Positions 7,839 through 59,502 are shown, numbered from the stretch's first letter. The stretch: DNA of 64,000 bases from an uncultured Lachnospiraceae bacterium (GCA_905209075.1 CAJLRL010000002.1:2869-66868), one strand, 5' to 3'. A program made the numbers and translations. Notes: generated from the sequence alone by a model not told the origin.

Positions 7839-7839
7839 T

Positions 7840-11869: not shown

Positions 11870-11883
11870 GAGAGGATGGTCAT

Positions 11884-12702: not shown

Positions 12703-12785
12703 ACTTTTCAAATAGCATGACTTGTGATAAAATCTATAAGAATTGTTACAAGTATTACGAATTTATTTCAGGAGGGATAATATAA

Positions 12786-14516: not shown

Positions 14517-14517
14517 T

Positions 14518-14718
14518 ATGATGAAAATATACATTTGTCCGCAGTGTGGATGGGTCCGTATGGTCTCAAGAAGGAAAACTGTGGAATGTCACAAATGTGG
14601 AAACATGCAGATGCGGCTTACAAATCTTGAATTTGACAAATATGCTGACATGACAGAAAAAGAACGTAAAGATTACGCAGATGCCTGGTTATATATTCAT
14701 AAGAGAAATAAAGGATAG
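14518..14718 (+). CDS. Small zinc-ribbon protein (4-Cys)
   Basis: 66 aa with CPQC...CHKC pairs. Confidence 0.4.
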   Translation: MMKIYICPQCGWVRMVSRRKTVECHKCGNMQMRLTNLEFDKYADMTEKERKDYADAWLYIHKRNKG

Positions 14719-14722
14719 AAAT

Positions 14723-15985: not shown

Positions 15986-17199
15986 TGGAAATGAAAAAAG
16001 AAATCAAAGACAAAGTAGTAAACACTAACCAGAAATATCTGGAGAAATTTTTATCACAGGATGTGCCTGAAAAACTTGAAAAACAGCTTGAAAACATGGA
16101 CTGGTCTTATATTGACATGATAAACGATAAAGAACAGAAAAGAGGAACTTTTTCTCCACTTGAGGCAATGGAGATATCCAAGATCGAGAGCAATAGATCA
16201 AAGTATACAGATATAGGAATCGATGCGATAAAAAACACAAAAGTCGGAGCAATTCTTCTAGCCGGAGGACAGGGCACACGTCTTGGATTCGACAAGGCAA
16301 AGGGAATGTTTAATATCGGACAGACAAAAGAGCTTTATATATTTGAACAGCTTATAGCAAACCTTATGAAAGTCACAAAGGCAGCAGATGCATGGGTTCC
16401 TCTTTACATCATGACAAGTGAGATAAACGATGCCATGACAAGAGAGTTTTTTGAAGAGCACAACTATTTTGGATACAACAGGGATTTTGTAAAGTTCTTT
16501 GTACAGGAAATGGTTCCGGCAGTTGATTTTGACGGAAATCTTCTCATGAAATCAGAGGATTCACTTGCAATGTCTCCTAACGGAAATGGTGGATGGTTCA
16601 AGTCACTTATAAATGCAGGTCTCGACAAAGATTTAAAAGACAAAGGTGTTGAGTGGCTCAATGTATTTGCTGTGGATAATGTACTTCAGCAGATAGCTGA
16701 TCCGGTATTTGTCGGTGCGACAATTGATTCAGGATGTGTAAGCGGCGCAAAAGTTGTAAGAAAAGTAGATCCATATGAAAGAGTTGGTGCACTTTGTCTT
16801 GAGGACGGCAAGCCATCTATAGTTGAGTACTATGAACTTACACCGGAAATGGCAGAGGCAAAGAATCCAAATGGATCACTCCAGTATGGATTTGGTGTTA
16901 TCCTTAACTATATCTTCCGTGTTGACAAGTTGTTTGGAATTGCGCAAAAGAGTCTACCGCTTCATGTTGTTGAAAAGAAAGTTCCATATATAGATGAGAA
17001 CAATACAGAGCATAAACCGGAAAAGCCAAACGCATACAAATTTGAAACATTGATCCTTGACATGGTTTATATGATGGATGATTGTCTCCCATTTGAGGTA
17101 GACAGGGAGAAAGAATTTGCACCGGTAAAGAATGCCACAGGTGTTGATTCGGTTGAGTCTGCGAGAGCGCTTTTAGTTAAAAATGGTATTGAAATATAA
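15985..17199 (+). CDS. UDP-sugar pyrophosphorylase (UDPGP type 1 family; UDP-GlcNAc/UDP-Glc pyrophosphorylase-like)
   Basis: LLAGGQGTRLG nucleotide-binding loop and about 400-aa length of the eukaryote-like UDPGP family. Confidence 0.7.
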   Translation: MEMKKEIKDKVVNTNQKYLEKFLSQDVPEKLEKQLENMDWSYIDMINDKEQKRGTFSPLEAMEISKIESNRSKYTDIGIDAIKNTKVGAILLAGGQGTRLGFDKAKGMFNIGQTKELYIFEQLIANLMKVTKAADAWVPLYIMTSEINDAMTREFFEEHNYFGYNRDFVKFFVQEMVPAVDFDGNLLMKSEDSLAMSPNGNGGWFKSLINAGLDKDLKDKGVEWLNVFAVDNVLQQIADPVFVGATIDSGCVSGAKVVRKVDPYERVGALCLEDGKPSIVEYYELTPEMAEAKNPNGSLQYGFGVILNYIFRVDKLFGIAQKSLPLHVVEKKVPYIDENNTEHKPEKPNAYKFETLILDMVYMMDDCLPFEVDREKEFAPVKNATGVDSVESARALLVKNGIEI

Positions 17200-26021: not shown

Positions 26022-29000
26022 ATGATTTCAAAGTATAGTGTTAAGAAACCATTCACCGTGCTTGTGGGTGTGATACTTGTTATTGTGCTCGGAGTCGTGT
26101 CCCTTAGCAGGATGACGACAGATCTGCTTCCGGATATGAGCTTTCAGTACGCACTTATAATCACGACAGATATGGGGGCAAGTCCACAGGAAGTGGAATC
26201 GGATGTAACGGCGCCGATCGAGTCGGCTATGGCTACGACATCCAACATCAAGAACGTAAGCTCTATGTCTTACAACAGTTATTCGATTGTAACTTGTGAA
26301 TATGAACAGGATGCAAACATGGACTCTGTTGTTATTGAGATACAGCAGAAGATAGAACAGGTAAAGGCATCATGGTCTGATGGCATAGGCACACCGACTA
26401 TCATGCAGATAAACCCGGATATGCTTCCTATCATGATGACGGCTGTCGACATGGACGGAAAAAGTGAGTCAGAGATCACAGATTATGTGGAAAATGAATT
26501 GATCCCGGCAATCGAAAGTACTGAGGGTGTTGCTTCAGTCACTGCGACCGGCGAACTGACTGAACAGATAGAGGTTACACTTGACCAGAATAAGATAGAT
26601 GCGCTCAACGAGAAAATCCATAATGCGGTTCTGGCTAAGTTTGACGATGCCAGGGAGAAATTAGACAGTGCAGACTCGCAGATAAAACAAGGCCAGAGTG
26701 CCATAAGCAATGCGTCAGATCAGATCAGCGAAGGTGTAGATACGATAAAAGATCAAAAGACACAGTTGTCAGATCAGAAAAGTCAGCTTGAGAGCACCCT
26801 TGCTGAATTAAATGAACAAAAAAGCCAGCTTGAGACTATCCAGTCAGGAATAAGTTCATTTATGAATGATACGATGTATACAGAGACGATACCTTCACTT
26901 GAAAAGGCAAAAGATATGCCGGGTGGAGATGTAGCAAAGGCTTCACTTGAGCAGATTGATAAACAGATCGCTGAGAAATTTTCGGGCCTGTCGGAGCTTG
27001 GAATAACAGTAAATGGATATGCAGATATGCCGCAGGCTGCCAGTACAGTCGCAAAGACACTTGTGCAGGTAAATACCGGCATAGAACAGTGTCAGAGCGG
27101 ACTTGAAAAGATATCAGAGGGAGAGATTGCATTAAATGATGCTATGGATGAACTTAACAGTCAGGCTGCTATAAGTTCCATTACAATAGGACAGCAGTCA
27201 GCCCAGCTTGCCACAGCAGCAGCTTCACTTGAAAATTCAAAAACACAGCTTGAGGAGAGTGAAAAGAGCGCACTTGACAAGTCTGATCTTAATACAGTGC
27301 TCAGTATAGATACACTGTCGCAGCTTCTTACGGCACAGAATTTTGATATGCCGGCAGGATATGTAAATGATGCTGATGGCACCCAGTATATTGTACAAGT
27401 TGGCGATAAGGTAAAATCTGTAGATGATCTGAACAATCTGGTACTTATGGATATGAACATGGACGGAATAGATCCTATCAGGGTATCAGATGTGGCAAAT
27501 GTTGAAATTACTGATAATTCAGGTGATAATTATGCGGTCATAAATGGAAATCCCGGAATAATTCTTTCAATGGAGAAACAGACCGGATATTCGACAGGAG
27601 ATGTCACAGACAGACTTCTTGATAAATTTGACTCTCTTGAAAAACAAAACGATGGGCTTCACACAACAGTGCTTATGAATCAGGGTATATATATTGACAT
27701 GGTAGTAAGCAGTGTGCTTCAGAACATGATAGTGGGTGCTATACTTGCCATCATAGTATTGTTCCTCTTCTTAAAAGATATAAAGCCTACGCTTGTTATC
27801 GCAGCATCAATTCCGCTTTCTGTAATAGTTGCGGTCGTGCTTATGTACTTTACAAATATCACATTAAATATCATTTCGATGTCAGGACTTGTGCTTGGAA
27901 TCGGTATGCTTGTTGATAATTCTATCGTTGTTATAGAAAATATTTACCGCCTCAGAGGTGAGGGATATTCTGTAAAAAAAGCTGCCGTAGAGGGTGCAGG
28001 TCAGGTGGCTGGAGCGATTTTTGCATCAACACTTACGACGGTAAGCGTATATGCGCCGATCATATTTACGGATGGAATCACAAGGCAGCTTTTCGTCGAT
28101 CTTGCCCTTACAGTATTATTCACGCTTATGGCAAGTCTTCTCGTGGCACTTACATTTGTGCCGGCCATAGCATCAGGAATGCTTAAAAAGACAAAGGATA
28201 TAAAACATCCGTGGTTTGAAAAATTTAAAGACTGGTATGGAAGAATACTTGCAGTATGTTTAAGGTATAAACCTGTAGTATTTATCGTGGCGATAGCACT
28301 TTTACTTGGCAGTGGAGCACTCTGCCTGTCAAAGGGAATGACCTTTATGGACATGGATATGGAGTCTGATCAGATCTCACTGACAATAACGGCAAAAGAG
28401 GATGAAAAGCTGGACTTTGACGAACTTACAGCTATGTCAGATCAGGTGATCGATAAAATTTCTGACATAAAAGGAATAGACACGATCGGTGCAACGGCTG
28501 GCGGAAATTCAACGATGAGCCTGATGAATTCTGGAACAGACAGCGTGAGCATGTATGTGCTTTTGGATGAAAATAAAAAGGTTTCATCGGATGATGTTAT
28601 TTCAGAAATTGAAGATCGCACAAAGGATTTAGACTGTGAAGTTACGGCAGATTCATCATCTATGGATTATTCAGCATATTTCGGAAGTGGAATCTCTGTA
28701 AAAATAAAGGGAAATGATATCGATAAGCTTCAGGAACTTGCGTCACAGGTTGCAGAAGTGCTCGAAGGCACAGAAGGTGTTGTGGATGTTGATGATGGAC
28801 TTAAAGATACGACAAACGAACTTAAGATCACAGTGGATAAAGAAAAGGCTGCAAAATATGGCTACACTGTGGCTCAGGTGTACAAACTGATATCAGATGA
28901 TATATCATCAAATAAGAGTGTGACAACGCTTTCCGCAGATATTAAGGATTATGAGGTATATTTACAGACGCAGGAACAGTCAGATGTAACAGTTGACGAT

Positions 29001-29783
29001 ATAAAAAATATGACGTTTACATATACAAATCAGGATGGTGATGAATCAGATATCTCGCTTTCTGATATATGTATGATAGAACAGACACAGACTCTCTCGA
29101 CGATCCACAGAGACTCACAGACCAGATACATAACAGTATCAGGCAGTGTCGATGAAAATCACAATGTTACATTGGTAAGTGACAAAGTTAAATCTAAATT
29201 AGATAAAATAGATATGCCGGAAGGCTACAGTGCTTCAATGGAAGGTGAGGATGAGACAATAAATGAATCCATGAGCCAGCTTGTACTTATGCTTTTACTT
29301 GCGGTAGTATTTATCTATCTGATAATGGTTGCACAGTTTCAGTCGCTGCTTTCGCCGTTTATCATCATGTTCTCAATCCCGCTTGCATTTACAGGAGGAT
29401 TTATAGCTTTATTTATTACCGGAAATGAGCTTGGAATCATATCAATGCTCGGATTTATCATGCTCGCAGGACTTATCGTAAACAACGGAATCGTGCTCAT
29501 AGATTATATCAATCAGGCAAGACGACAGGGAATGAAAAAACATGATGCGATCATCGACGCAGGAAAGACAAGAGTGCGTCCGATCCTTATGACAGCGATG
29601 ACTACCATACTTGCTATGGTGACCTCTGCAATAGGAATCGGCGGTGGTTCAGATATGATAAAACCGATGGCGATAACGATCATCGGAGGACTCGTATACG
29701 GAACGATTCTTACACTTATCGTAATTCCATGTATTTACGATGCATTCAACAGGGAAAAAAATATGGTTGAGGAGGATCTCTAA
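26022..29783 (+). CDS. RND superfamily efflux permease (AcrB/HAE-like) with a large coiled-coil insertion
   Basis: N-terminal TM1 plus porter-domain blocks align with AcrB. Two 5-6 TM bundles (..FLFLKDIKPTLV.. and ..IMFSIPLAF..). An insertion of about 250 aa of heptad-like Q/S/L-rich sequence at residues about 190-430. Confidence 0.8.
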   Translation: MISKYSVKKPFTVLVGVILVIVLGVVSLSRMTTDLLPDMSFQYALIITTDMGASPQEVESDVTAPIESAMATTSNIKNVSSMSYNSYSIVTCEYEQDANMDSVVIEIQQKIEQVKASWSDGIGTPTIMQINPDMLPIMMTAVDMDGKSESEITDYVENELIPAIESTEGVASVTATGELTEQIEVTLDQNKIDALNEKIHNAVLAKFDDAREKLDSADSQIKQGQSAISNASDQISEGVDTIKDQKTQLSDQKSQLESTLAELNEQKSQLETIQSGISSFMNDTMYTETIPSLEKAKDMPGGDVAKASLEQIDKQIAEKFSGLSELGITVNGYADMPQAASTVAKTLVQVNTGIEQCQSGLEKISEGEIALNDAMDELNSQAAISSITIGQQSAQLATAAASLENSKTQLEESEKSALDKSDLNTVLSIDTLSQLLTAQNFDMPAGYVNDADGTQYIVQVGDKVKSVDDLNNLVLMDMNMDGIDPIRVSDVANVEITDNSGDNYAVINGNPGIILSMEKQTGYSTGDVTDRLLDKFDSLEKQNDGLHTTVLMNQGIYIDMVVSSVLQNMIVGAILAIIVLFLFLKDIKPTLVIAASIPLSVIVAVVLMYFTNITLNIISMSGLVLGIGMLVDNSIVVIENIYRLRGEGYSVKKAAVEGAGQVAGAIFASTLTTVSVYAPIIFTDGITRQLFVDLALTVLFTLMASLLVALTFVPAIASGMLKKTKDIKHPWFEKFKDWYGRILAVCLRYKPVVFIVAIALLLGSGALCLSKGMTFMDMDMESDQISLTITAKEDEKLDFDELTAMSDQVIDKISDIKGIDTIGATAGGNSTMSLMNSGTDSVSMYVLLDENKKVSSDDVISEIEDRTKDLDCEVTADSSSMDYSAYFGSGISVKIKGNDIDKLQELASQVAEVLEGTEGVVDVDDGLKDTTNELKITVDKEKAAKYGYTVAQVYKLISDDISSNKSVTTLSADIKDYEVYLQTQEQSDVTVDDIKNMTFTYTNQDGDESDISLSDICMIEQTQTLSTIHRDSQTRYITVSGSVDENHNVTLVSDKVKSKLDKIDMPEGYSASMEGEDETINESMSQLVLMLLLAVVFIYLIMVAQFQSLLSPFIIMFSIPLAFTGGFIALFITGNELGIISMLGFIMLAGLIVNNGIVLIDYINQARRQGMKKHDAIIDAGKTRVRPILMTAMTTILAMVTSAIGIGGGSDMIKPMAITIIGGLVYGTILTLIVIPCIYDAFNREKNMVEEDL

Positions 29784-30475
29784 TGGCCCAGATACAGATA
29801 AAGCCAAAGAATATATTAGAGCCATCTGAAAAAGTACTTCAAATGTACGAAGCGGTACACAGCTTCATGCTTGAAAAAAGGGATATATCAACGATAAAGG
29901 TGGTGGATATAACATCCGCCGCCGGAATCGGAAAAGGCACAGCATATGAATATTTTTCTTCAAAGGAAGAAATCATAGCAAGCGCCATGGCATATGAATA
30001 TAAAAATAAAATAACAGAACTTGTAAACTGCATGTTTGCACAGAGCGGCTTTAAAAACCGTGTGATGAACGTGATGGACTGGATATACGATAATCAGGAG
30101 TACAATCAGCTTTTTTCACACATTTTTAATGAGGTCATGGGAGAGCCGAGACTGCCTCTGATAGGAAGCAGCATAAAGCAGCTGGAGAGTGATAATGAAG
30201 CACAGACTACGGCAGAAGATTTAAAAGGTGGTTGCCGTATGATGGATGACTGTGTAAAATACTTAGACAGCATTGTATCACGCCTTATGCAGGAAGCATA
30301 TGATGAGGGTGTCATAACTGAAACAGACAGCACCAAACGAAACATAACTGCGATGTCGGGGATGATACAATATGGCTGTATGCTCATGCTGGAAAGCCGC
30401 AGACAGATGAGCGCCATGACAGATGAGCAGCTGCGGCAGTTCATCTATGGAAATATAATAAAATGCCTGAATTAG
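29783..30475 (+). CDS. TetR/AcrR family transcriptional regulator
   Basis: N-terminal HTH (ITSAAGIGKGTAYEYFSSKEEI). Start overlaps the RND stop. Confidence 0.7.
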   Translation: MAQIQIKPKNILEPSEKVLQMYEAVHSFMLEKRDISTIKVVDITSAAGIGKGTAYEYFSSKEEIIASAMAYEYKNKITELVNCMFAQSGFKNRVMNVMDWIYDNQEYNQLFSHIFNEVMGEPRLPLIGSSIKQLESDNEAQTTAEDLKGGCRMMDDCVKYLDSIVSRLMQEAYDEGVITETDSTKRNITAMSGMIQYGCMLMLESRRQMSAMTDEQLRQFIYGNIIKCLN

Positions 30476-33914: not shown

Positions 33915-35306
33915 ATGGAAAATAAAAGTGCAGGCGGACCGGTTGTCAGAATTTCACATGATCAGATGGAAGCATACCTTCTTTTACCGATGGTCAATTT
34001 TGATCAGACATATAAATTTGAGGAAGTGATGGATCTTCTCGACAAAAATGGTGTCAGATTTGGAGTAGATAAGAAAGTTATAGATAATATGATCTCAAAC
34101 AGGATTTTTGGAAGAGAGGTTTTGGTGGCGCATGGTGAGCCGGTGGAGGATGGCCATGATGGCTATTATAATTTTGGGTTTGACTGTAATCCAAATAAAA
34201 AACCGGTTATACGTGATGATGGAAGCGTTGATTATTGGAGTGTGCATGCGATAGAAACCGTTGAGGAGGGGCAGGTGATAGCAACATATGTTGAACCTGT
34301 ACCGGGAAAGAATGGCATGACAGTAAAGGGAACACCGGTTACTGCCAAAAGAGGCAGACCGATCTCACCTTTACTTGGAAGGGGCTTTGAAAGATCAGAG
34401 GACGGACTGACATATAAAGCAACGATTTCAGGAAAGATAGAGATGCAGAATAACCGGATACTCATTGTTCCTATATATGAGATATTCGGGGATGTAGATG
34501 TAAACACTGGAAATATTGACTTTAAGGGGGATGTTGTAATACATGGAAATATAAAGCCCGGAGCCAGTGTCAGATCAACGGCTTCAATTACAGTGGACGG
34601 GATATCAGAAGGCTGTAATCTTGAAGCAGGCAAGGATATTATCCTAAGAGGTGGAATGATAGGTGGTGATAAAGCCCACCTTAAGGTAAAAGGAAATCTC
34701 TATGCAAAGTTTATTGAGTATACACATGTTGAAGCGGATGGATTTATAGAAGCAGATTCAGCGATGAACAGTACCATAATAAGCTATGATAAGGTTATCT
34801 TTGCAGCAGGACATGCAAGCGTTATAGGTGGTGCTATATATGGCTGTGCAGGAATAGAAGCCAATAACTTTGGAAATGAATCTGAGGTAAAGACAGAGGT
34901 TAATGTCGGTATCCATAAAAAGATACGGCAGAGGATTTTCCAGCTTCAGAATCTTATAGAAGAGGATCAGATATTAGTAGACAAAATCAATTCCGGAATC
35001 AGGCAATATGATGAAATATCAAAGGAAAAAGGACTTAACGCAGCATCAGATGAAAAGAGAGTCGCTCTCCTAAGGGCGAGAATTGCGCGTCAGGCAGAAA
35101 TTTCAAAAAATTCGCAGGAGCTGGAATGGCTGAACAGTATAGTTGAAAGATCGCAGGGTGCTACCGTGAAAGTCGAAAGGGATGTATACCCTAATGTAGA
35201 AGTAAGGATCAACGATGCAAAGGTCTTAAACAGACATAAGCAGAGCAAAGTTGAGTTTATAGAGCAGCATGGCAAAGTTGTAATGCTGTCACTGCTTGAT
35301 CAGTAG
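33915..35306 (+). CDS. DUF342/FapA-like beta-helix protein
   Basis: 463 aa with repetitive G-x-hydrophobic beta-helix-like segments (GDVDVNTGNIDFKGDVVIHGNIKPGASV...) typical of DUF342 (FapA) proteins. Confidence 0.45.
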   Translation: MENKSAGGPVVRISHDQMEAYLLLPMVNFDQTYKFEEVMDLLDKNGVRFGVDKKVIDNMISNRIFGREVLVAHGEPVEDGHDGYYNFGFDCNPNKKPVIRDDGSVDYWSVHAIETVEEGQVIATYVEPVPGKNGMTVKGTPVTAKRGRPISPLLGRGFERSEDGLTYKATISGKIEMQNNRILIVPIYEIFGDVDVNTGNIDFKGDVVIHGNIKPGASVRSTASITVDGISEGCNLEAGKDIILRGGMIGGDKAHLKVKGNLYAKFIEYTHVEADGFIEADSAMNSTIISYDKVIFAAGHASVIGGAIYGCAGIEANNFGNESEVKTEVNVGIHKKIRQRIFQLQNLIEEDQILVDKINSGIRQYDEISKEKGLNAASDEKRVALLRARIARQAEISKNSQELEWLNSIVERSQGATVKVERDVYPNVEVRINDAKVLNRHKQSKVEFIEQHGKVVMLSLLDQ

Positions 35307-36968: not shown

Positions 36969-37135
36969 TTAAATATAAATATAATAAAAATACAAAAGAC
37001 ACTTGGTTTATTCAGGTGTCTTTTTATTATTATGATAAAAGAACCGGGAGATCACATATGTGTACCCTGGTGATAACATGTGGGGAAAGGGAGCCAAAAG
37101 ACAGTTCTATGTTTCCACAGAAAAAGGAGGATTAT

Positions 37136-37450
37136 ATGATAGGAGAATATAGTATTCTTAACGGCCGGCTTACTTATAAAATGCCGGAAGAAATCGATCA
37201 CCATATGGCAAAAGCTATAGCGATGGAGATAGATGCATTGATAGAGGGTGGAGGTGTAAGAAAGGTTGTTTTTGATATGGAGCAGACCAGATTTATGGAC
37301 AGTTCAGGTATAGGAATTGTAATAGGACGAGCCAGAAAGCTTAAGTTTTTTGAAGATGGAGAAGTAGCTGTCTGTAATATGTCAAAACGTGTGGATGTGA
37401 TATTTAAAAGTGCCGGACTCTATGACATTGTAAAAAAGGAGGAAAAATAG
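37136..37450 (+). CDS. spoIIAA: Anti-sigma F factor antagonist
   Basis: STAS-domain, about 105 aa, phosphorylatable Ser in FMDSSGIG. AAAAAGGAGG SD before the ATG at 37136. The track GTG start at 37016 overlaps the upstream terminator. Confidence 0.8.
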   Translation: MIGEYSILNGRLTYKMPEEIDHHMAKAIAMEIDALIEGGGVRKVVFDMEQTRFMDSSGIGIVIGRARKLKFFEDGEVAVCNMSKRVDVIFKSAGLYDIVKKEEK

Positions 37451-37890
37451 TGGAAAATAGTACATATATAAATAATCATATGGAACTGTCATTTGATGCA
37501 GTTTCAGTAAATGAGGCGTTCTCAAGAACTGCTGTGGCAATGTTTATGGCGCAGCTTGATCCTACACTAGAGCAGATTGATGATGTAAAGACAGCAGTAT
37601 CAGAGGCAGTCACAAATGCAATTATACATGGTTATAATGAGGATGAGCCAGAAAAACAGGTAAAAATGAAGTGTATGTATGATGAAAACAGGATACTTAC
37701 TATAAAGATCATTGACGAAGGCATAGGGATAAAGAATATAGATAAGGCTATGCAGCCACTGTATACGTCAAAGCCGCAGATGGAAAGGTCAGGAATGGGA
37801 TTTTCGTTTATGCAGGCATTTATGGATAGTCTTGTTGTTGAATCAGAATGCGGCAGGGGTACAACGGTCACAATGACAAAAAAGTTGTGA
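37450..37890 (+). CDS. spoIIAB: Anti-sigma F factor (serine kinase)
   Basis: 146 aa GHKL-type ATPase blocks (ELVTNAIIHG-like VSEAVTNAIIHG, IIDEGIGI, GMGFSFM). Confidence 0.85.
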   Translation: MENSTYINNHMELSFDAVSVNEAFSRTAVAMFMAQLDPTLEQIDDVKTAVSEAVTNAIIHGYNEDEPEKQVKMKCMYDENRILTIKIIDEGIGIKNIDKAMQPLYTSKPQMERSGMGFSFMQAFMDSLVVESECGRGTTVTMTKKL

Positions 37891-37903
37891 TGGGAAATCG
37901 GCT

Positions 37904-38581
37904 ATGATAGAAAATAGAGCTGGAAATGATACGGACAGGCTTGTAGAAGAAAATATCGGCCTTATTTATATGGTACTTAAAAGATTTAAGAACAGAGGGC
38001 GTGATATGGAGGAATTATTTCAGGTTGGAGCAGAAGGGCTTACAAAGGCGGCAGCACGCTTTGAGCCGGACCGGGGATATGCATTCTCGACATATGCTGT
38101 TCCAATGATAATCGGTGAAATACAGAGATTTATAAGGGATGACGGCATGGTACATATCAGCCGCAAGATTAAAGAGGACGCAAGAAAGATTGCAGTTATC
38201 AGAGAACAATTAGAAAAGACTGACAGCAATGGAATATCTGTTGAGAAAATCGCTGAAAATACAGGACTATCAAAACAGGATATAATTATTGCAATGGAAG
38301 CGGAAAATCCAACAACAAATATAGAAAATGAATCGGTGATTGATTTTATCGAACATAAGAATGCCCATGAAATATCTGTCTCAGACAGGGTGGTCGATAA
38401 TCTTACCCTGCAGGAGGCCATAAAAAAACTAAGTGAAGAAGAGAAAAGATTTATCCGTATACGCTATCTTGAAGAAAAAACGCAGAGTCAGACAGCACAA
38501 ATCCTAGGAAAAAACCAGGTGGCGGTATCCAGATACGAAAAAAAACTTTTGCTTAAGCTGCGGCGAAGTTGTATGATATGA
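37904..38581 (+). CDS. sigF: RNA polymerase sporulation sigma factor F
   Basis: Sigma-70 regions 2-4 (YAVPMIIGEIQRFIRDDG, C-terminal HTH QSQTAQILGKNQVAVSRYEKK) directly downstream of spoIIAA-spoIIAB. Confidence 0.85.
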   Translation: MIENRAGNDTDRLVEENIGLIYMVLKRFKNRGRDMEELFQVGAEGLTKAAARFEPDRGYAFSTYAVPMIIGEIQRFIRDDGMVHISRKIKEDARKIAVIREQLEKTDSNGISVEKIAENTGLSKQDIIIAMEAENPTTNIENESVIDFIEHKNAHEISVSDRVVDNLTLQEAIKKLSEEEKRFIRIRYLEEKTQSQTAQILGKNQVAVSRYEKKLLLKLRRSCMI

Positions 38582-51496: not shown

Positions 51497-51551
51497 TACT
51501 TTTGTTATAATGATATTGTAAATGTCAATATGTACAAAAGAGGTTGTTTAT

Positions 51552-52487
51552 ATGGGGTTTTTGAATAAAAAAAGTACTACAGAAGAGAGTACAGAAACAC
51601 AGGAACTTAAAAGGCTTCTGGAGGAGGCAAGGGTTAACGCAAAAAACCTCCGGAAGTCATTGGAAAATATAGATACACATATGCATGGCGTATCGGATCA
51701 TGCCGGCGAGATCGGTTCCATAATGCAGGAATATGGAACCAGTATAAGCCAGATGAATGAAAATATTTCAGAAATCGCAAATGTAATGGAAGAGATGGAA
51801 AACTCGTTTGAGGGGATGAACGAGGAGGCAAAGGACGGAGCAAGGTATGCCCAGAACAGCAACAAAGCGGCTTATGACATCATGATGGAGTCTGAGAACG
51901 AAAGACGTGAAGTGGAAGAACGTGCCAATGCTGTGGAAAAAGCGCTGATGGATAAAATCGAGCAGTCTAAGGAAGCTGAAAAGATCCTTGATCTTACGGC
52001 GAATATATTAGAGATTGCAGATCAGACAAACCTTTTAGCGCTCAACGCTTCAATAGAAGCAGCACATGCAGGAGATGCGGGAAGAGGATTCGCAATTGTT
52101 GCCGACGAGATAACCAAGCTTGCTGCAAGCTCAAGTGAAACGGCAGAACAGATAAAGGAGATATCAGCATCTGTGTTAAATGCAGTTTCAGGTCTTGCAA
52201 GTGAAGCTGAAAATGTTGTTACATTTATGAAAGATAAGACTATGGGAAGCTATGATAAGCTTGTGGAAGTCGGACGTAAATATCAGGGTGACTCAAAGAT
52301 AATGTTTGATAAGATGCAGGATTTTTCATATGTTTCACAGAGCCTGCTTGAGCAGGTTGCAGATTCAAATAAATCAGTCGATGCCATAAGAACAGCAGCA
52401 GGAGAAACTGAGCAGTCACTTAACTCTATAATGGATAAAATGGATGAGATAGATGACAGCATAAAAGAAATTATGCATACATCGTAA
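51552..52487 (+). CDS. Soluble methyl-accepting chemotaxis protein signalling-domain protein (no TM or sensor domain)
   Basis: [31 protein letters not shown] matches the MCP highly conserved signalling tip. Coiled-coil flanks. Confidence 0.65.
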
Positions 52488-52574
52488 TTTACTATTTACA
52501 AATCAATAAAAATGTGTAATATTATAAATATCAATTTTGGTATTTATGCATGCGGATTAGTATGCATTCTTTTA

Positions 52575-52597
52575 GTGGCGTTCTGCCACTTTTTTTA
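52575..52597 (+). terminator. Rho-independent terminator
   Basis: AGTGGC-gttct-GCCACT followed by T7. Confidence 0.7.
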
Positions 52598-52702: not shown

Positions 52703-52876
52703 ATGAAAGAGATTTTTCAGGAGTATGGAGGAATACTTATAACAGTTGTTGCAATTTTATCTATTATTCTGGTTATAACGGCGGTAATAGGTTCCGATGC
52801 TGACAGTATAATCGGAAAAGCTTTTAATGATCTGATCCAGGGCTTCTTAGCGCAGGCAAATAACAGTATTAAATAG
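52703..52876 (+). CDS. Flp-like leaderless mini-pilin, paralog 1 (57 aa; below ORF-track cutoff)
   Basis: MKEIFQEYGGILITVVAILSIILVITAVIGS... N-terminal E-Y-G then a hydrophobic helix resembles mature Flp pilins (..IEYGLIA..). AAAGGAAGGG SD. Directly upstream of the CpaF-like ATPase. Confidence 0.5.
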   Translation: MKEIFQEYGGILITVVAILSIILVITAVIGSDADSIIGKAFNDLIQGFLAQANNSIK

Positions 52877-52886
52877 AGGTGGGCAG

Positions 52887-53942
52887 ATGGAACTAGGCAA
52901 AGAATATTTTGGACCACTGTGGAGCTTTGTCGCAAGCGATGAGATAACGGATATAGATTATAATGGCAAAGAAATATGGTTAACAAATATTTTTAACGAG
53001 AGATTCAGGGCTAATCCGCAATTTGTATCGGAGTATATGACAACTGCGTTTGTAGAGCAGTTTACACAGCGTATAGCAAATGTGGTGAGCAGGCAGTTTA
53101 ACAAAAGAAATCCGGAGCTTGAAGCGGAAACCAGTGAGCTTCGTGTCACCATACTTCATGAGTCAGTTGCAAAATCGGGCAGAAGCATAAGCATAAGAAA
53201 GACGCCGCCGCTTATAAGACTTACAGCAGAATCAGCTGTAGCAGAGAAGTTTTGTTCTCAGGAAATTCTTTCGCTGCTGATAAATTGTGTGATCACAAAG
53301 ATGAATATCACATTTTGCGGAATGCCGGGTATAGGAAAGACGGAATGTGTTAAATTTTTCTCGCAATTTATTCCGGCAAACGAAAGAGTGATAACAATAG
53401 AGGATACACTTGAGATAAGATATGGTGCGACAAATCCGGGAAAAGACTGTATAGAGATGAAAGTCAGTGAGGATGTATTTGGATATTCCGAGGCAATAAA
53501 ATCATGTCTTAGAATGAATCCGAAATGGATAATGCTGTCTGAAGCCCGCTCAAAAGAAGTTAAATATCTTCTTGAAAGCTGGAGTACCGGCGTGAGGGGA
53601 ATGACAACACTTCATACAGATGATGTGCGAAATATACCTGACAGGATACTTAATATGCTTGAGAGCCGGATAGATGCTGAAAGGATGGAAAATGATATAT
53701 ATCAGGCTTTGGATGTCGGTATACTTATCAGAAAAGGCAGGAGAGATGATGGCGCTGTATACAGGTATATAGATCAGATTTGCTTCTTTTTCAGGGAAAA
53801 TTATAGTAATGAGATTTTTATGGTAGTATCTGATGGGAAAATAGTCACAAAAGATCTGCCGAAGATTATCATGAGAAGATTTAAGAGAGCCGGGATTGAT
53901 GATCCGTTTGAACTTAAGGCATCAAAGGAGGTGGAACAGTGA
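52887..53942 (+). CDS. CpaF/TadA-type secretion ATPase (type II/IV secretion NTPase family)
   Basis: ITDIDYNG, SISIRKTPP, Walker A GMPGIGKT, FIPANERVITIEDTLEIR, RMNPKWIMLSEAR, TTLHTDD all align block-for-block with CpaF/VirB11 motifs. Confidence 0.8.
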   Translation: MELGKEYFGPLWSFVASDEITDIDYNGKEIWLTNIFNERFRANPQFVSEYMTTAFVEQFTQRIANVVSRQFNKRNPELEAETSELRVTILHESVAKSGRSISIRKTPPLIRLTAESAVAEKFCSQEILSLLINCVITKMNITFCGMPGIGKTECVKFFSQFIPANERVITIEDTLEIRYGATNPGKDCIEMKVSEDVFGYSEAIKSCLRMNPKWIMLSEARSKEVKYLLESWSTGVRGMTTLHTDDVRNIPDRILNMLESRIDAERMENDIYQALDVGILIRKGRRDDGAVYRYIDQICFFFRENYSNEIFMVVSDGKIVTKDLPKIIMRRFKRAGIDDPFELKASKEVEQ

Positions 53943-55324
53943 TATATTTATCACTTATGGCACTTACATATCTGCTCAAAATCCTCCTTAAATTAAACTG
54001 GATAAGCACAGTGGCTGTTTTATGCTTTCTGCTTGTCATGCAAAGATGGCACAAAAAGAAGCATCTTGCATATGTAAATTCGGTGGATAGATTCGAGGAT
54101 GTTTCACTGTATATAGATACACTCCTTTACTCTTTTATGAAGGAAAGAAAGATAATAAGGGCATTTGAGGATACGTGGAGTACATTTGAGGATGGAACGA
54201 TGAAGCAGACCATACAGAATGCATTTGATCATATGCGGCTTACTTTCGATGAGACGGAAGTTTTAGTCGACGCAATGAAAATTATAGAGACAGAGTATAA
54301 CTGCAACCGGATAAAGACTGCACATGAATTTATGGAGCATGCGGAATATTATGGCGGAGATATAAATAATTCTGCCAGAATCCTGCTTAAGGATAAAAGT
54401 TCGTGGGAAAGAAGGATTCATAAGACGATTGAAGAGAGAAAGCGGATGTTTACCGAGATAATAATGTCGGTTGTAATGTCGATCGTGATATGTGGGATCG
54501 TACTCCATCTGCCTGTGCTTAACATGGACATAAGTACAAATATTTTTGTGCAGATACTTGCCGTGATCGTTGTGATACTTGATGATTTTATAATTCTTAG
54601 GGGACAGGGATACTTAAGTGTGGACTACCTCACAGTTGATCTGTTAAGTGATGAGCAAAAATATGTAAAGAAGCTTGAGGATTATAAAAATTACGACTAT
54701 AAAAAAGAATTTAAGCGATCGATCCTGTATTCGATCATACCGGCAGTTATCATGTGTGTATGTCTGTTGTATGGCAGGCAGTGGTGGGCAGCAGCAGCGA
54801 TGGGGATTATGCTCCTGACGCTTAACCAGCACAAAATAGGACATAAACTGATGAAGAAAAATATTACACGGCAGATAAAAAGTGCTTTCCCTAAATGGCT
54901 TATGGATATTGCCCTTCTGATACAAAGCGAAAATGTCCAGGTAGCAATCCAAAAATCCAGGGAACATGTTCCGCTCATATTAAGAGGAGAAGTTGAAGAA
55001 TTAATTGGCAGGCTTGATATGGAGCCGGAATCATCAGGTCCTTATCACAGATTCTTAGAGAAACTTACTCTTCCACAGATAAATGCGGCAATGGGCATGT
55101 TGTATGCTGTCTCAATAGGTAATAGTGGTAATGCAGAGGATCAGATAGATGAGCTTATAACTAAGAATCTAGAGATGCTTGATATTGCTGACAGCGAGAG
55201 ACTAAAGGACAATACAGCAGGTATGTATTTATTGTTCCTGGCACCAGTTGTTACCGCTTCATTTAAGCTGATCGTGGATATGGCAGTGTTTCTGCTTGGT
55301 TTTTTATCATACAGGGTTATATAG
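53939..55324 (+). CDS. Polytopic membrane protein, probable fused TadB/TadC-like (T2SS-F type) platform protein
   Basis: 461 aa. Alternating cytoplasmic helical domains and TM hairpins in two repeats. Translationally coupled to the ATPase (overlapping stop/start). Confidence 0.4.
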   Translation: MIYLSLMALTYLLKILLKLNWISTVAVLCFLLVMQRWHKKKHLAYVNSVDRFEDVSLYIDTLLYSFMKERKIIRAFEDTWSTFEDGTMKQTIQNAFDHMRLTFDETEVLVDAMKIIETEYNCNRIKTAHEFMEHAEYYGGDINNSARILLKDKSSWERRIHKTIEERKRMFTEIIMSVVMSIVICGIVLHLPVLNMDISTNIFVQILAVIVVILDDFIILRGQGYLSVDYLTVDLLSDEQKYVKKLEDYKNYDYKKEFKRSILYSIIPAVIMCVCLLYGRQWWAAAAMGIMLLTLNQHKIGHKLMKKNITRQIKSAFPKWLMDIALLIQSENVQVAIQKSREHVPLILRGEVEELIGRLDMEPESSGPYHRFLEKLTLPQINAAMGMLYAVSIGNSGNAEDQIDELITKNLEMLDIADSERLKDNTAGMYLLFLAPVVTASFKLIVDMAVFLLGFLSYRVI

Positions 55325-55333
55325 GAGAAGAGA

Positions 55334-55708
55334 ATGAGCCAGATAATGAAATCCTTTTTGGGATTATTTTTAATAATGTTTATGGTTGTGACTTCGGCGG
55401 GCGTACTTTCAGGATTTTTGTCGGTTTTATCAGCACAGAATACGCATGCAGCGATCATAAGTGAGCTTGAGGACAGTGATTTTTATCCTTCAGTAGTTAA
55501 TGAGTGCTTTAAGAAGGCAAAGGATGAAAATACGCAGCTATCAATAAAATTATACCTTGATGATAATTCAGTTAAAACCATAAGCGGTGCAGGGGAAATT
55601 CCTGGAGGAAAGAAAATTGAGAAAGCGCGTGTGGAACTTAAGTTTTTTTATCAGATACCTTTTTTTGAGATAAAAGAACCGCATATTTTAAGTGGATACG
55701 CATTATAA
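55334..55708 (+). CDS. TadE/pseudopilin-like protein (N-terminal hydrophobic segment)
   Basis: MSQIMKSFLGLFLIMFMVVTSAGVLSGFLSVL then a soluble domain of about 90 aa. Confidence 0.35.
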   Translation: MSQIMKSFLGLFLIMFMVVTSAGVLSGFLSVLSAQNTHAAIISELEDSDFYPSVVNECFKKAKDENTQLSIKLYLDDNSVKTISGAGEIPGGKKIEKARVELKFFYQIPFFEIKEPHILSGYAL

Positions 55709-55731
55709 GCTTTAATGGGGGATTATAAGAT

Positions 55732-55830
55732 ATGGAGACTTTGATAGAAGAATATGGTGGAAGCATAATAATGCTGTTATTTGGGGCTGGTGCTGTAGCC
55801 GTGTTAGAACAGATTTTTGCGATTTTATAA
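55732..55830 (+). CDS. Flp-like leaderless mini-pilin, paralog 2 (32 aa; below ORF-track cutoff)
   Basis: METLIEEYGGSIIMLLFGAGAVAVLEQIFAIL. Same xxIxxEYGG plus hydrophobic helix pattern. Confidence 0.4.
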   Translation: METLIEEYGGSIIMLLFGAGAVAVLEQIFAIL

Positions 55831-55840
55831 GGAGGGGGAA

Positions 55841-55987
55841 ATGAAAGCAATATTTAGAGAGTATGGAGGTATGCTTATAGCATCAGCTGCTACATGCACA
55901 TTTCTGGTTTTGATAGGAAATATATTCCTTGCCCAGGATGGACTTTTATCAAAGCTTATCATGGCATGGGGAAATGGAGGAATCTGA
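55841..55987 (+). CDS. Flp-like leaderless mini-pilin, paralog 3 (48 aa; below ORF-track cutoff)
   Basis: MKAIFREYGGMLIASAATCTFLVLIGNIFLA... GGAGGGGG SD immediately upstream. Stop overlaps the next start (TGATGA). Confidence 0.45.
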   Translation: MKAIFREYGGMLIASAATCTFLVLIGNIFLAQDGLLSKLIMAWGNGGI

Positions 55988-56442
55988 TGAAAGAAATAAT
56001 GCACACATATGGTGCACTTATCATTTCAGCTGCAATTCTTGTCGGAATTCTTGCATTATTTTCTAATGTATCATATAGGGCTGCGGCAGCATTTGAGAAT
56101 AAAGAAATTCTGGATGATAATATGCAGAATATTGCTTATGACAATTACAAAGATGTGCATATTCCAAAGCTGACACCAAAGCCGGCATTATACGAGACAT
56201 CCAGGGATATTATAGCGGGAAATCTGTTCTGCGATACAGCAGAGTCTGCTAATATATTGAGAACAAAAGCGTATACAGTATTAGATGAAAGTGGTAACAG
56301 AAAGGACGAGTGCATAAAAAACAGCGGTATGAGGCTTTATTTTGCAAAGCCGGGAATATATACAGTTTACCTTACGGTAACTATGGTAAACGGAATGCAG
56401 CTGCATTCCGTTACCAAAGTTGCAGTTAATCAGAAAATATAA
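55987..56442 (+). CDS. Pilin-like protein, paralog 4, with C-terminal globular domain (151 aa)
   Basis: MKEIMHTYGALIISAAILVGILALF... has the same N-terminal pattern (T replaces E), then a domain of about 120 aa. In-frame internal start of track ORF 55894..56442. Confidence 0.45.
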   Translation: MKEIMHTYGALIISAAILVGILALFSNVSYRAAAAFENKEILDDNMQNIAYDNYKDVHIPKLTPKPALYETSRDIIAGNLFCDTAESANILRTKAYTVLDESGNRKDECIKNSGMRLYFAKPGIYTVYLTVTMVNGMQLHSVTKVAVNQKI

Positions 56443-56457
56443 AGATTAGGGGGGAAA

Positions 56458-56853
56458 ATGAAAAATACAGTATTAGGAATAATAGGATGTATTATCGTTT
56501 TGTATACAGCAATGCTTTCATTAGGAATATATAGTCTGTACATCCATAAGAACCAGATGGAGAAATGCCTGTCACAGGTATTGTATGGAGTTATGGATAA
56601 ATATTATCTGCCACATGATACAGCAGAGACGGGTGGGGCTTTAAATAATACAGCTGCAAGAAATGATGTTCTGGAAGACATAAAGGCACGTCTTGGAGAC
56701 TGTGACAATCTAAACACAACTATATATGTCTGTGATATGGACAAAGGGATAATCTCAGCACGCATAGAGAATGATCTCGAGCTTCCCATGGGAATAGAAA
56801 AGCATCTAAGTTGTACAAAAACAATAATCGCAGATAGGGGGATGGATGATTGA
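56458..56853 (+). CDS. TadE/TadG-like minor pilin-type membrane protein
   Basis: MKNTVLGIIGCIIVLYTAMLSLGIYSLYI hydrophobic N-terminus then a soluble domain. Confidence 0.35.
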   Translation: MKNTVLGIIGCIIVLYTAMLSLGIYSLYIHKNQMEKCLSQVLYGVMDKYYLPHDTAETGGALNNTAARNDVLEDIKARLGDCDNLNTTIYVCDMDKGIISARIENDLELPMGIEKHLSCTKTIIADRGMDD

Positions 56854-57758
56854 AAAAAATAAATAGAAAAAACTGTATTATCGGAGCAGGACTTCTTTTA
56901 ATGGGAATTATGGTGATGACAGTTTCTGCTGCATGTGGAAATAAAAGAGAAAAAACAGAATCAGAAACACTAAACACTAAAAATATTGTAAATGGATCAG
57001 AACTTATAGCTGAAACTGAAAAAGTAAGCAAAGTAGAAAATTCAAAGGATAATGAAAAAATCCAACAAAATACAGAGCCTGTGAAGCAGACAAACATTGA
57101 ACAGATCAAACCGGATAAAACAGATATCCAGAGCAGTCCATCAACCGAAAATGAAACAAAAAATGATGATGAAAAAAATGATAACGATGAAAAAAAGAGT
57201 GACGTGATGGAAGAAGAAAATCCAGATTATCATGCCAGCGGAGGAGAATCGGATGTTTCGGATAATCCTGCAGATGAATATAATGCAGATGAGCCGGACA
57301 ATAGTACGCATGATCAAGATGCAGATGAACCAGACAATGATACGGAAAATTACGAGACATATGATGATGGAAACGGATTCGGTGATGCTAAGGAAGAAAA
57401 GCCAAAGGTAGATGCAGGCTGGATTTATTATGTAAGCTCTGCAAAAAATGGAATGAACAGCGAACAGAAGGCATATTTTGACGCACTTGTCGGGAAGTGG
57501 ACACGGAAAGAAATAACTGATGCGGATATGAGTGATGAGTTTTTACATACCTTTGATGAATGGGGCTTTGATACATGGACTGCAGGTGTAACGTCAGATG
57601 AAAGATGTTTGTTTAATTCAGTGGAGGCAATACCTGATTATAGCGAGATGGTTGCAGAAAGTAAAGGATTTTATAATTTCATAGGATTATATACGGAAGG
57701 AGAGTACGACGATAAAGGATATCTTATATGCTATTACTGGGAAGCAGGAACGATGTAA
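56850..57758 (+). CDS. Lipoprotein with acidic low-complexity linker
   Basis: Signal peptide with lipobox VSAAC. D/E/N-rich region. Conserved C-terminal domain. Confidence 0.55.
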   Translation: MKKINRKNCIIGAGLLLMGIMVMTVSAACGNKREKTESETLNTKNIVNGSELIAETEKVSKVENSKDNEKIQQNTEPVKQTNIEQIKPDKTDIQSSPSTENETKNDDEKNDNDEKKSDVMEEENPDYHASGGESDVSDNPADEYNADEPDNSTHDQDADEPDNDTENYETYDDGNGFGDAKEEKPKVDAGWIYYVSSAKNGMNSEQKAYFDALVGKWTRKEITDADMSDEFLHTFDEWGFDTWTAGVTSDERCLFNSVEAIPDYSEMVAESKGFYNFIGLYTEGEYDDKGYLICYYWEAGTM

Positions 57759-57780
57759 AAGAAAAACTGCAACAGCAGCA

Positions 57781-59502
57781 GTGACAGGACTTATTTTGGC
57801 AGGGGTGCTCATTATTACATTTGGATGTCAGGGAAATGTGTATGCTGCAGAAAGAACTGCGGCTAATAATGCAGCAACTTATTATAGTATTTTTGGAAAC
57901 AAAACGGTTTTTGTTCCAGATGCACCAACAGACGGAAAAGTGTATTTCTGTTCAGCAGGGAAAAAGGCTACATCCGGTACAAGATTTAAGACTGTAGGAT
58001 ATAAAATGACGGTGCGTGATAATAAGGGGAACTGGCTGCAATCCATATATTATGAGATGGATGGAAGATTTATGAAATTAATAGATGACACGGAGGAGGG
58101 AGGATACGATTATACGTTGTATGCAATTTCTCTATATGTGATTAAATCAAGGATGAATGCAACAGCGCAAAATGCACTAAAAAATGGAAATTGTAATATA
58201 GTACTTGATGCATGTATGGTTGTGACAAAAAATGGTGTACCGCAGGGAGCAATGAATGATAACGGATGGGTGTCAGGTTCGGTGTATGATACATATACCG
58301 GAATAGCTTCAGCAGCAGACTGGAGTGATGGAGCACTCGAGTCGCTGCACTCATATTATTCCAAAACAGTCAATGGATTATTTCATACTATAACTGTTAA
58401 TGGGGCATCCGGAATTTCATCAACAAAAGGTTCGGGTACATATTGTTATGGAACAGAAATCAGTATTTCAGCATCGCCTAAGCCGGGGTATGCATTTACA
58501 ACATGGAATAACAACAGTAAGCTTACAGCAAACCCATATAAGCTGTATGCAAATACATCAGTCACATATACAGCATATGCTAAAATACAGGATCTGACAG
58601 TAAGTTTTTATAGAAACAGCTATGATGCGGATAAAGTGGGGATTACAAAGAAATATGTTATGGGGACTGCCGGACAGAAGTTTCCTTCCGTTGATTGGAA
58701 AAAGGAGGGCTTTCATATGATAGGATGGAATAATAAAAAGTCTGATACGACAGCTGGGTATTCTTTGAACTGTAATGTAGCAGATGCGTGGATAAAAAGC
58801 TGTGCACCGGCAAAAAATATATATGCTGTATGGCAGAAAAACAAATATACAGTCAAATTTGATACTGGACAGACATATAACGTCTATTATGATGGGGAAA
58901 TCGTAATACCGGATGGAAGATTATGCAAAGGATATATTTTCGGAGATGGCACAGGAAAGACAATGTACAGCCCAAATAAGACTGTATCGGTAGCAGATAT
59001 GTGCAAAAAACTTGGACTGGAATATACAGATGGAGGTGTAATTAATTTTTACGTTGTTTGGGAGCATGAACCAGTCATAGAGGCAGAAGATATGTATTTT
59101 TCAGTACAGGCGGCAAGAGATGGGCTGGTGACGGAGGAAATGCTTTCGGGAAGGATTAAAGCATACGATGTTGAGGATGGTGATATACCATATGGAATGA
59201 ATGGTACAAATTATTTTCGTATACAAAATTATTCACCATATTCGATAAGAAATGCGGCAGATGGAGAGATCATCGGGCTTGATCTGGAAGTCATGGATAG
59301 TTTTGGAAATATTGTATCTAAACAGATAAAACTTAAGTTTGTGGATTCAAAATTTGAAGATCAGACGGCAAAATATGGAAAGATAAGATTTATAAGTGAT
59401 AAATATTATGGAAAAGGAAAAGCGGGAGGTCTTTTATATGACTCCCGCTGGTTAAATGATCCATCATATATTAATCTTCTGCAGAAGGCTCTGGAAGCTT
59501 AA
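57781..59502 (+). CDS. Secreted protein with Listeria-Bacteroides (InlB B-type) repeats; start uncertain
   Basis: Hydrophobic signal-like N-terminus. GYAFTTWNN...TYTAYA and GFHMIGWNN...NIYAVW match the B-repeat pattern (G-[YF]-x-F-x-G-W ... Y-A-x-W). Confidence 0.55.
   Translation: MTGLILAGVLIITFGCQGNVYAAERTAANNAATYYSIFGNKTVFVPDAPTDGKVYFCSAGKKATSGTRFKTVGYKMTVRDNKGNWLQSIYYEMDGRFMKLIDDTEEGGYDYTLYAISLYVIKSRMNATAQNALKNGNCNIVLDACMVVTKNGVPQGAMNDNGWVSGSVYDTYTGIASAADWSDGALESLHSYYSKTVNGLFHTITVNGASGISSTKGSGTYCYGTEISISASPKPGYAFTTWNNNSKLTANPYKLYANTSVTYTAYAKIQDLTVSFYRNSYDADKVGITKKYVMGTAGQKFPSVDWKKEGFHMIGWNNKKSDTTAGYSLNCNVADAWIKSCAPAKNIYAVWQKNKYTVKFDTGQTYNVYYDGEIVIPDGRLCKGYIFGDGTGKTMYSPNKTVSVADMCKKLGLEYTDGGVINFYVVWEHEPVIEAEDMYFSVQAARDGLVTEEMLSGRIKAYDVEDGDIPYGMNGTNYFRIQNYSPYSIRNAADGEIIGLDLEVMDSFGNIVSKQIKLKFVDSKFEDQTAKYGKIRFISDKYYGKGKAGGLLYDSRWLNDPSYINLLQKALEA

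Follow-up and report, generated by a model that had tools for sequence, protein, structure and literature searches.

Can a type IV filament-like machine assemble subunits that are made without a leader, and do so without a prepilin peptidase? In reviews, the prepilin peptidase and the class III signal peptide are counted as universal, defining parts of type IV filaments (PMC10191384, PMC6916266, PMC6668835). The question is raised by an operon at positions 52703-59502 of a 64,000-nucleotide stretch of DNA from an uncultured Lachnospiraceae bacterium (GCA_905209075.1, CAJLRL010000002.1:2869-66868), the whole of which is referred to below as the window. In this operon a pilus-type ATPase and a putative platform protein are encoded together with small Flp-like proteins that carry an EYG motif and no leader ending in glycine; no prepilin peptidase is linked to them, and the arrangement is conserved family-wide. 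This core idea of an earlier reading of the DNA (the sequence-only reading) held up in the current study. We favour the view, at a probability of roughly 0.5, that the locus encodes a divergent Tad-like filament machine of Gram-positive Lachnospiraceae with leaderless, probably unprocessed pilins. Gene content and conservation were observed directly, and everything beyond them is what we infer.

The ten genes form one tightly packed operon on the + strand, with gaps of at most 23 nucleotides or overlaps. The open reading frames (ORFs) of the sequence-only reading were all present, and their existence, coordinates and strand were borne out. The operon and the hairpin ahead of it comprise:

52574..52590, + strand: terminator-like hairpin and T-run (AGTGGCGTTCTGCCACT then TTTTTTATTC), with a 7-pair stem that includes 4 G-C pairs.
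52703..52876, + strand: pil1, a pilin-like protein of 57 amino acids and the candidate major subunit; MKEIFQEYGG, a hydrophobic helix of about 21 residues and a short amphipathic tail, without a leader.
52887..53942, + strand: ATPase of 351 amino acids, T2SSE superfamily (Pfam T2SSE), VirB11/CpaF/FlaI branch.
53939..55324, + strand: polytopic, all-helical membrane protein of 461 amino acids, a probable fused two-domain platform (GspF/PilC/TadBC-like).
55334..55708, + strand: p124, 124 amino acids, a candidate minor pilin or pseudopilin; MSQIMKSFLG, a transmembrane (TM) segment and a small globular domain.
55732..55830, + strand: pil2, a mini pilin-like protein of 32 amino acids; METLIEEYGG and one hydrophobic helix, with nothing further.
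55841..55987, + strand: pil3, a pilin-like protein of 48 amino acids; MKAIFREYGG, a helix and a WGNGG-type C-terminal tail.
55987..56442, + strand: pil4, a candidate minor pilin of 151 amino acids with a head domain; MKEIMHTYGA, a helix and a C-terminal domain of about 110 amino acids.
56458..56853, + strand: p131, an N-terminally membrane-anchored protein of 131 amino acids (MKNTVLGIIG...).
56850..57758, + strand: probable lipoprotein of 302 amino acids (...VSAAC) with an acidic low-complexity region; a variable accessory gene.
57781..59502, + strand: p573, a secreted protein of 573 amino acids with InlB-type B-repeats (Pfam Flg_new_2) and a candidate adhesin that the filament may display or be displayed with.

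Related loci, 59 in number and with ATPases of 36-90% identity, were found in Agathobacter, Lachnobacterium, Roseburia and other Lachnospiraceae. The four pilin-like paralogs that had been proposed (pil1 to pil4) are real genes, each with a Shine-Dalgarno sequence in front of it. The N-terminal pattern of the class reads M-x-x-[IV]-[FIM]-x-[EQ]-Y-G and runs straight into a hydrophobic helix. The N-terminus of p124 (MSQ[IV]xKx[FY]xG) was kept in 52 loci, and because its register is that of pil1 to pil4, p124 can be added as a fifth member of the class. The signature shared by all five operon proteins is M-x-x-[IV]-[FIM]-x-x-[YF]-G/x-G/x, followed by the hydrophobic helix.

In the window no in-frame start lies upstream of pil1. 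Of 53 related loci, about half show a stop codon no more than 26 codons upstream, and no start lies in the interval. Every related locus has a purine-rich Shine-Dalgarno sequence 6-10 nucleotides ahead of the pil1 ATG. Among 120 close database homologues of pil1, 104 start at the same Met and 99 have an identical N-terminus; the longer homologues carry N-terminal extensions that are mutually unrelated, suggesting that their starts are gene-caller artefacts, and none of these extensions ends in Gly. A search of 1.84 billion representative proteins with the pil1-family profile gave 227 clusters, and 114 distinct N-termini were compared: M1 was found in 100%, Y8 in 113 and G9 in 110. Since the upstream stops, the ribosome-binding site in every copy and the 114 N-termini that begin alike all agree, the pil1 start codon is genuine and the leader absent, as had been proposed from the sequence.

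The same comparison qualifies the Glu-Tyr pair that had been placed at residues 7-8. The Tyr is nearly invariant, but position 7 is E in 69 and Q in 44 of the N-termini. Position 10 is G, P or S (Pro in 17), and a basic residue (Lys) occupies either position 2 or position 6, never both, in 108. The tail ahead of the helix is 8-9 residues long and has a net charge of -1, and the i/i+4 charge pattern of the N-terminus suggests a helical charge face. Family members also differ in whether the acidic residue stands at position 6 or at position 7 (K-x-x-x-Q-E versus K-x-x-x-E-Q). A further group of family members (P0446, P0469, P0471, P0476, P0481, P0486 and P0490) is long, at 193-661 amino acids, and keeps M-[KQ]-K-I-F-x-E-Y-G-G and the helix ahead of large C-terminal domains, resembling modular pilins.

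Canonical Flp reads ...DEDG/ATAIEYGLFAALIAAVIVG..., and canonical TadE reads ...DETG/ATAVEFVLVLP... In pil1, M1-K2 followed by E3-I4-F5-Q6-E7-Y8-G9 equals the Flp register of G(-1) followed by x1-x4-E5-Y6-G7. There is no Gly at the Flp -1 position; the residue in that register is Lys (or Gln, Asp or Glu), with Met alone ahead of it. As the sequence-only reading had suggested, the proteins look like mature Flp/TadE N-termini preceded by nothing except Met-Lys. The likeness is one of architecture, since no hidden Markov model (HMM) or profile comparison detects homology: Flp_Fap (Pfam) had no match at E≤1 among the window proteins, hhalign to canonical Flp was not significant, and a profile search of the PDB with the pilin family returned no Flp match. 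The TadE model matched neither the window proteins nor 56 orthologues of p131 and pil4. The label 'TadE-like' that had been given to two of the proteins is thus unsupported by any HMM; functional analogues of TadE/TadF that share the N-terminal motif are present in the operon. A single-sequence AlphaFold2 model of pil4 (pLDDT 50) showed a long N-terminal helix and C-terminal strands, and was too poor to use.

The earlier claim that no prepilin peptidase accompanies these genes also stood. No Peptidase_A24 (Pfam) was found among the ORFs of at least 110 amino acids in the 64-kb window, and a motif search, run without a positive control, found no GxGDxK membrane ORF in the window or in the 59 loci with their 8-kb flanks. 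Neither the operon nor its neighbours encode a ParA/AAA_31 protein (TadZ/CpaE).

The order pilin, ATPase, platform, p124, mini-pilin, pilin of about 48 amino acids, pilin of about 150 amino acids, p131 and large secreted protein is kept across the related loci and holds down to 36% ATPase identity. The pil1 gene lies directly 5' of the ATPase gene in 53 of the 59 loci, relatives with ATPase identities as low as 53% have a pil2 orthologue of 32-37 amino acids in the corresponding place, and pil3 was found in 31 loci by tblastn. In 38 of 60 loci there are exactly four ORFs that carry the motif behind a Shine-Dalgarno sequence, in matching places within the operon, and almost none occur elsewhere in these 17-kb loci, a pattern far from chance. 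Identity ranges from 75-90% for the ATPase through 55-86% for the pilin and 45-68% for the platform to 25-65% for the minor pilins and the adhesin, a gradient of divergence that is typical of pilus loci. In the Agathobacter-like clade the locus always lies between RarA/aminotransferase and CNNM/GuaB genes, and this fixed position between housekeeping genes argues that it is chromosomal and vertically inherited. An origin from a phage or mobile element was rejected in view of the conserved chromosomal synteny, a GC content equal to that of the flanks and the lack of meaningful PHROG matches.

In the three most divergent loci (L048, L053 and L058) the gene order is kept and the EYG motif is lost; their pilins have short N-tails, again without a Gly-ended leader. 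The most divergent of these, L058, encodes a pilin of 66 amino acids (L058:3318-3518) that begins MPTESSEVGSG-FVKIFYGILITL... A cut after GSG would put Y-G in the Flp +6/+7 register, so that this segment may be a relic leader (MPTESSEVGSG/FVKIFYG); the idea was dropped, as the other L058 subunits have no common Gly site. In Roseburia-like loci the gene upstream of the pilin has no Pfam match.

The sequence-only reading had assigned the ATPase to the CpaF/TadA type by its motifs. These are intact (Walker A GMPGIGKT, Asp box IEDTLE, Walker B IMLSEAR, His box TLHT), and the match to Pfam T2SSE (2.8e-17; 62.9 bits against a cut-off of 24.9) places the protein in the pilus-type family. The narrower assignment to CpaF found no clear support. 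Among NCBIfam models VirB11 scored higher (103 bits) than TadA (80 bits, cut-off 373) and FlaI (64 bits); TrbB likewise ranked below VirB11, and all of them were far below their cut-offs. The best PDB sequence matches were CpaF (66.7 bits, 1.9e-17) and Helicobacter VirB11 (61.9 bits, 5e-16), followed by archaeal GspE and FlaI. In a search of plasmids, the best ATPase matches were from Gram-positive conjugative elements (pHTbeta at 30% identity, then pLIS8, pXO2 and pXO1), and these outranked alpha-proteobacterial CpaF and far outranked VirB11/TrbB. A thinly sampled neighbour-joining tree of 15 taxa, which was built without archaeal FlaI and Firmicute TadA, joined the Lachnospiraceae clade to the Gram-positive plasmid 'CpaF/VirB11' ATPases with 91% bootstrap; a grouping with proteobacterial CpaF received 0%, and the clade never joined VirB11/TrbB. 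The ATPase thus resembles VirB11 and CpaF to about the same degree and is not a clear CpaF. More than 2300 homologues were found at 75-80% identity.

The 461-amino-acid protein shows a twice-repeated architecture of TM segment, helical bundle and long TM helix, and its identification is based on fold similarity and sub-threshold T2SSF matches. This fold-based evidence for a platform component is moderate, and the protein is probably a fused two-domain platform. The earlier proposal of a fused TadB/C platform agrees with the fold and the repeats; profile comparisons lent it no clear support, as the T2SSF model gave no match to the window protein and hhalign was not significant for the platform profile against canonical TadB, TadC or the pHTbeta membrane proteins, or for its N-terminal against its C-terminal half. 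A profile search against PDB sequences and a Foldseek search of the PDB both returned nothing.

Among the remaining operon products, p124 may be a distant relative of DUF4320 (PF14208). The window protein has no match to this model, five of its 44 orthologues match weakly (E 1e-3 or weaker, below the cut-off), and hhalign to a 120-amino-acid ORF of pHTbeta gave a probability of 73% (E 3e-5); this pHTbeta counterpart itself matches DUF4320 (E 0.0021). The p131 gene was kept in 48 of the 59 loci, and a homologue of the lipoprotein was found in 16. The claim of a lipoprotein followed by a secreted B-repeat protein was supported by the ...VSAAC sequence of the former, a probable lipoprotein, and by the Flg_new_2 match of p573 (3.1e-8), for which an adhesin is a candidate role. 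Homologues of p573 occur in 46 of the 59 loci at 25-50% identity, and no match was found among PDB sequences. The downstream operon proteins carry their own Sec signals. In three species (L019:10973-12802, L020:11560-13023 and L026:11149-12720) the orthologues of p131 and p573 are fused into one protein of 487-609 amino acids, linking a membrane anchor to an adhesin-like module. In a Roseburia-like locus (L042:12289-16884) the last operon gene encodes a subtilase (Peptidase_S8) of 1531 amino acids in place of the B-repeat protein. T2SSE, Flg_new_2 and MCPsignal were the only matches when all proteins of the locus were scanned against Pfam, NCBIfam and PHROGs.

The upstream flank encodes RarA/MgsA, an aspartate aminotransferase and a soluble MCP-domain protein; a convergent CNNM gene bounds the operon downstream, followed by genes for IMP dehydrogenase and a HisA-like protein. 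The MCP gene (window 51522-52487), to which the sequence-only reading had drawn attention, is genuine and encodes a soluble signalling-domain protein of 321 amino acids without a TM segment. About half of the related loci have it; the five closest relatives and the Roseburia-like clade lack it. The hairpin at 52574-52590 is the 5' boundary of the operon transcription unit and separates it from the MCP gene. Because of this hairpin and its own patchy presence, the MCP gene was not counted in the system, and a functional link to the operon found no support.

The system would work like the Tad/Flp pilus of monoderms. In common with the Bifidobacterium breve Tad and Micrococcus luteus Flp systems (PMC6916266) it has a compact operon, a tiny single-helix subunit with E-Y-G before the helix, several minor pilin-like proteins, a CpaF/VirB11-branch ATPase, a GspF-fold platform, no secretin and a gut-colonisation context. 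Unlike these, its subunits have Met-Lys alone ahead of the Flp register and no Gly-ended leader, and the locus has no linked TadV or TadZ/TadG and one probable fused platform in place of TadB and TadC. Its ATPase is shorter (351 amino acids), lacks the CpaF N-terminal domains and falls outside the CpaF cluster, and the Flp_Fap, TadE and T2SSF HMMs fail on the window proteins. Compared with a Tad/Flp pilus proper, the system lacks the Gly at -1 of the Flp motif, a linked TadV, TadZ and TadE, and probably also separate TadB and TadC. The component set of the type IV filament superfamily is present in the form of a VirB11-type ATPase, a polytopic GspF-fold platform and several single-helix subunits; judged by N-tail length, charge and the missing Gly at -1, the subunits appear to have no class III signal peptide.

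The nearest relatives appear to be the 'VirB11' regions of the plasmids pXO2/pAW63, pHTbeta and pLIS8 (PMC1196294), which are themselves uncharacterised. They encode the sister clade of ATPases and share the layout of ATPase, platform-like membrane proteins, a DUF4320-like protein of about 120 amino acids (xIIKxFxG) and single-helix proteins of about 48 amino acids without Gly-ended leaders. They differ in having two separate membrane proteins and no EYG, and in lying beside VirB2/TrbC, VirB4 and VirD4, whereas the window locus is chromosomal, has conserved synteny and ends in adhesin-like genes. In pHTbeta (L060, 6600-11750), pXO2 (L064, 4650-9800) and pLIS8 (L062, 6387-10425) the module was observed next to TrbC/VirB2 and VirD4, with the two membrane proteins at about 270 amino acids each. 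They resemble a filament module of the Tad-like kind that forms part of a Gram-positive conjugation system. The pXO1 module (L061) also has a Firmicute CpaF/VirB11-family ATPase, a membrane protein with a weak T2SSF match and small pilins, but it encodes a TadZ-like ParA ATPase, and its pilins have a Gly-ended leader (MLTKMKNWLKNEDSQLSSENG/MLIALAV...), which shows that leaderless pilins are confined to particular lineages. Two tandem pilins of 67 amino acids (..SSENG/MLIALAV) were seen there (5845-12265), with WxL and DUF916 surface proteins after them. The TANB77 cluster of gut Clostridia (PMC11680825) is alike in its CpaF-like ATPase, single fused TadC/TadB platform and run of short single-TM pilin-like proteins unmatched by models; it differs in having CpaB, TadZ and CpaE, an ATPase of 640 amino acids and pilin-like proteins of 143-237 amino acids, and the leaderless motif is not described there. 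Literature searches on leaderless or unprocessed pilins, on Tad in Lachnospiraceae or Eubacterium rectale and on the plasmid VirB11 modules turned up no description of leaderless pilins or of this locus, consistent with the earlier impression that it is not a described system.

If the favoured reading is correct, pil1 would be the major subunit, lying N-in/C-out in the membrane, from which the ATPase and the platform would extract it and polymerise it into a thin Flp-like filament. The proteins pil2, pil3, p124 and pil4 (32, 48, 124 and 151 amino acids) would be minor pilins that prime or cap the filament, and the p131 anchor and the p573 B-repeat protein would supply adhesion. The subunits would be translated essentially in mature form, and no prepilin peptidase would be required, since there is no class III leader to remove. 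The lone conserved Lys (position 2 or 6) may stand in for the N-terminal amine and pair with conserved acidic residues within the core of the filament. As a tentative proposal, which we think less likely than not, this could be the first type IV filament-like lineage that assembles unprocessed, leaderless pilins without a prepilin peptidase, with Lys in place of the N-terminal amine; the machine would be a core, vertically inherited organelle of abundant gut butyrate producers, and its plasmid relatives would encode an unrecognised conjugative filament.

Several points weigh against a machine with unprocessed pilins. The filament is a prediction from gene content, the Flp, TadE and T2SSF models were unmatched by the window proteins, and hhalign to Flp, TadB and TadC was not significant. 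E7, the supposed equivalent of E5, is Q in 39% of the family N-termini; the membrane orientation is not set by the positive-inside rule, because the N-tail is net acidic; the nearest relatives of the ATPase sit in plasmid conjugation regions; and the invariant G9 could be a cleavage site. On the last point, the same machine might process its pilins, with MKEIFQEYG(G) serving as a short, atypical, acidic leader that an A24 peptidase encoded elsewhere, or a different membrane protease, removes after Gly9 or Gly10. G9 occurs in 110 of the 114 N-termini, and the 20 or so residues immediately after it are hydrophobic, which is the layout of a generic class III signal peptide; loci that borrow an unlinked peptidase are known (MSH, PMC6668835; B. 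breve Tad, PMC6916266). According to a citation in PMC11300603, a solved TadZ structure came from E. rectale, which suggests that a conventional Tad system is likely in this species group and that an A24 peptidase may be encoded elsewhere in the genome. However, the nine-residue segment is net acidic, not basic, and no other part of the five paralogues is as strongly conserved, although conservation of a leader is usually poor. The would-be +1 residue (position 10) is Pro in 17 of 114 cases, the EYG-plus-helix register matches the mature Flp motif, cleavage would leave the 32 amino acids of pil2 at 23, and the peptidase would have to be unlinked in all 59 loci. Processing is therefore judged unlikely, although it is the main alternative.

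The machine could also build a short pseudopilus in place of a long pilus, serving as a T2SS-like or Com-like piston, or as a conduit across the cell wall, that exports or displays the downstream secreted proteins (p573, the lipoprotein or, in Roseburia, a subtilase) or takes up DNA. There are many minor-pilin-like genes for one major subunit, the cargo-like last genes vary by species, as with the S8 protease of L042, and the downstream proteins carry their own Sec signals. A monoderm has no need for a second-membrane secretion step, though; the gene of the major subunit stands first and is highly conserved, as in filament-forming pilins, the fusion of anchor and adhesin fits display better than secretion, and no ComEA/ComEC-like competence genes were found in the locus. 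We think a pseudopilus quite improbable. A domesticated or remnant mating-pair-formation module, making cell-cell contact for DNA transfer, is a fainter prospect still: the plasmid regions share its ATPase clade (91% bootstrap) and its layout, but ATPase identity to the plasmid forms is 26-32%. VirB4, VirD4, a VirB6-like channel and a relaxase were absent from the operon and the 64-kb window, and VirB2/TrbC and an integrase from the locus and its vicinity, while the position between RarA and aminotransferase genes on one side and CNNM and GuaB on the other is fixed across genera and the GC content is that of the flanks. Finally, the small ORFs might not be genes at all, leaving an orphan ATPase among unrelated membrane proteins. 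Annotations call them hypothetical or miss them, and no family model matches, but their conservation in relatives had been named beforehand as a test, and position, length class, Shine-Dalgarno sequence and motif were kept over 59 loci and 227 protein clusters, so that the comparison in effect refutes this idea.

Other gene sets were observed elsewhere in the window. A surface-polysaccharide biosynthesis cluster (389-17199) contains genes for an MBOAT protein, GT2 glycosyltransferases, a flippase, GtrA, a Polysacc_synt_2 dehydratase, a DegT aminotransferase, a Bac_transf priming transferase, LytR-CpsA-Psr and UDP-glucose pyrophosphorylase. An RND (AcrB-family) transporter of 1253 amino acids (26022-30475), matched from residue 418 on and unusually long for a Gram-positive, is followed by a TetR-family regulator. 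Genes for a STAS anti-anti-sigma factor, a HATPase_c_2 anti-sigma kinase and a sigma-70-family factor (37016-38581; SpoIIAA/SpoIIAB/SigF-like or RsbV/RsbW/SigB-like) have genes for a TPR protein and a FapA-family protein ahead of them (33915-35306).

Current annotation pipelines label most genes of this locus 'hypothetical'. Metagenomic members run to thousands in single protein clusters, and at least 1000 contigs carry the pilin. If the favoured reading is true, leader removal would not be mechanistically required for pilin polymerisation, and the locus would offer a minimal model, with one ATPase, one platform and a 57-amino-acid subunit, for the extraction of pilins from the membrane. Its carriers include Agathobacter and Roseburia, dominant butyrate producers of the gut, and it is abundant in metagenomes; the locus is therefore a candidate colonisation or adhesion factor of these bacteria and a potential host-exposed antigen.

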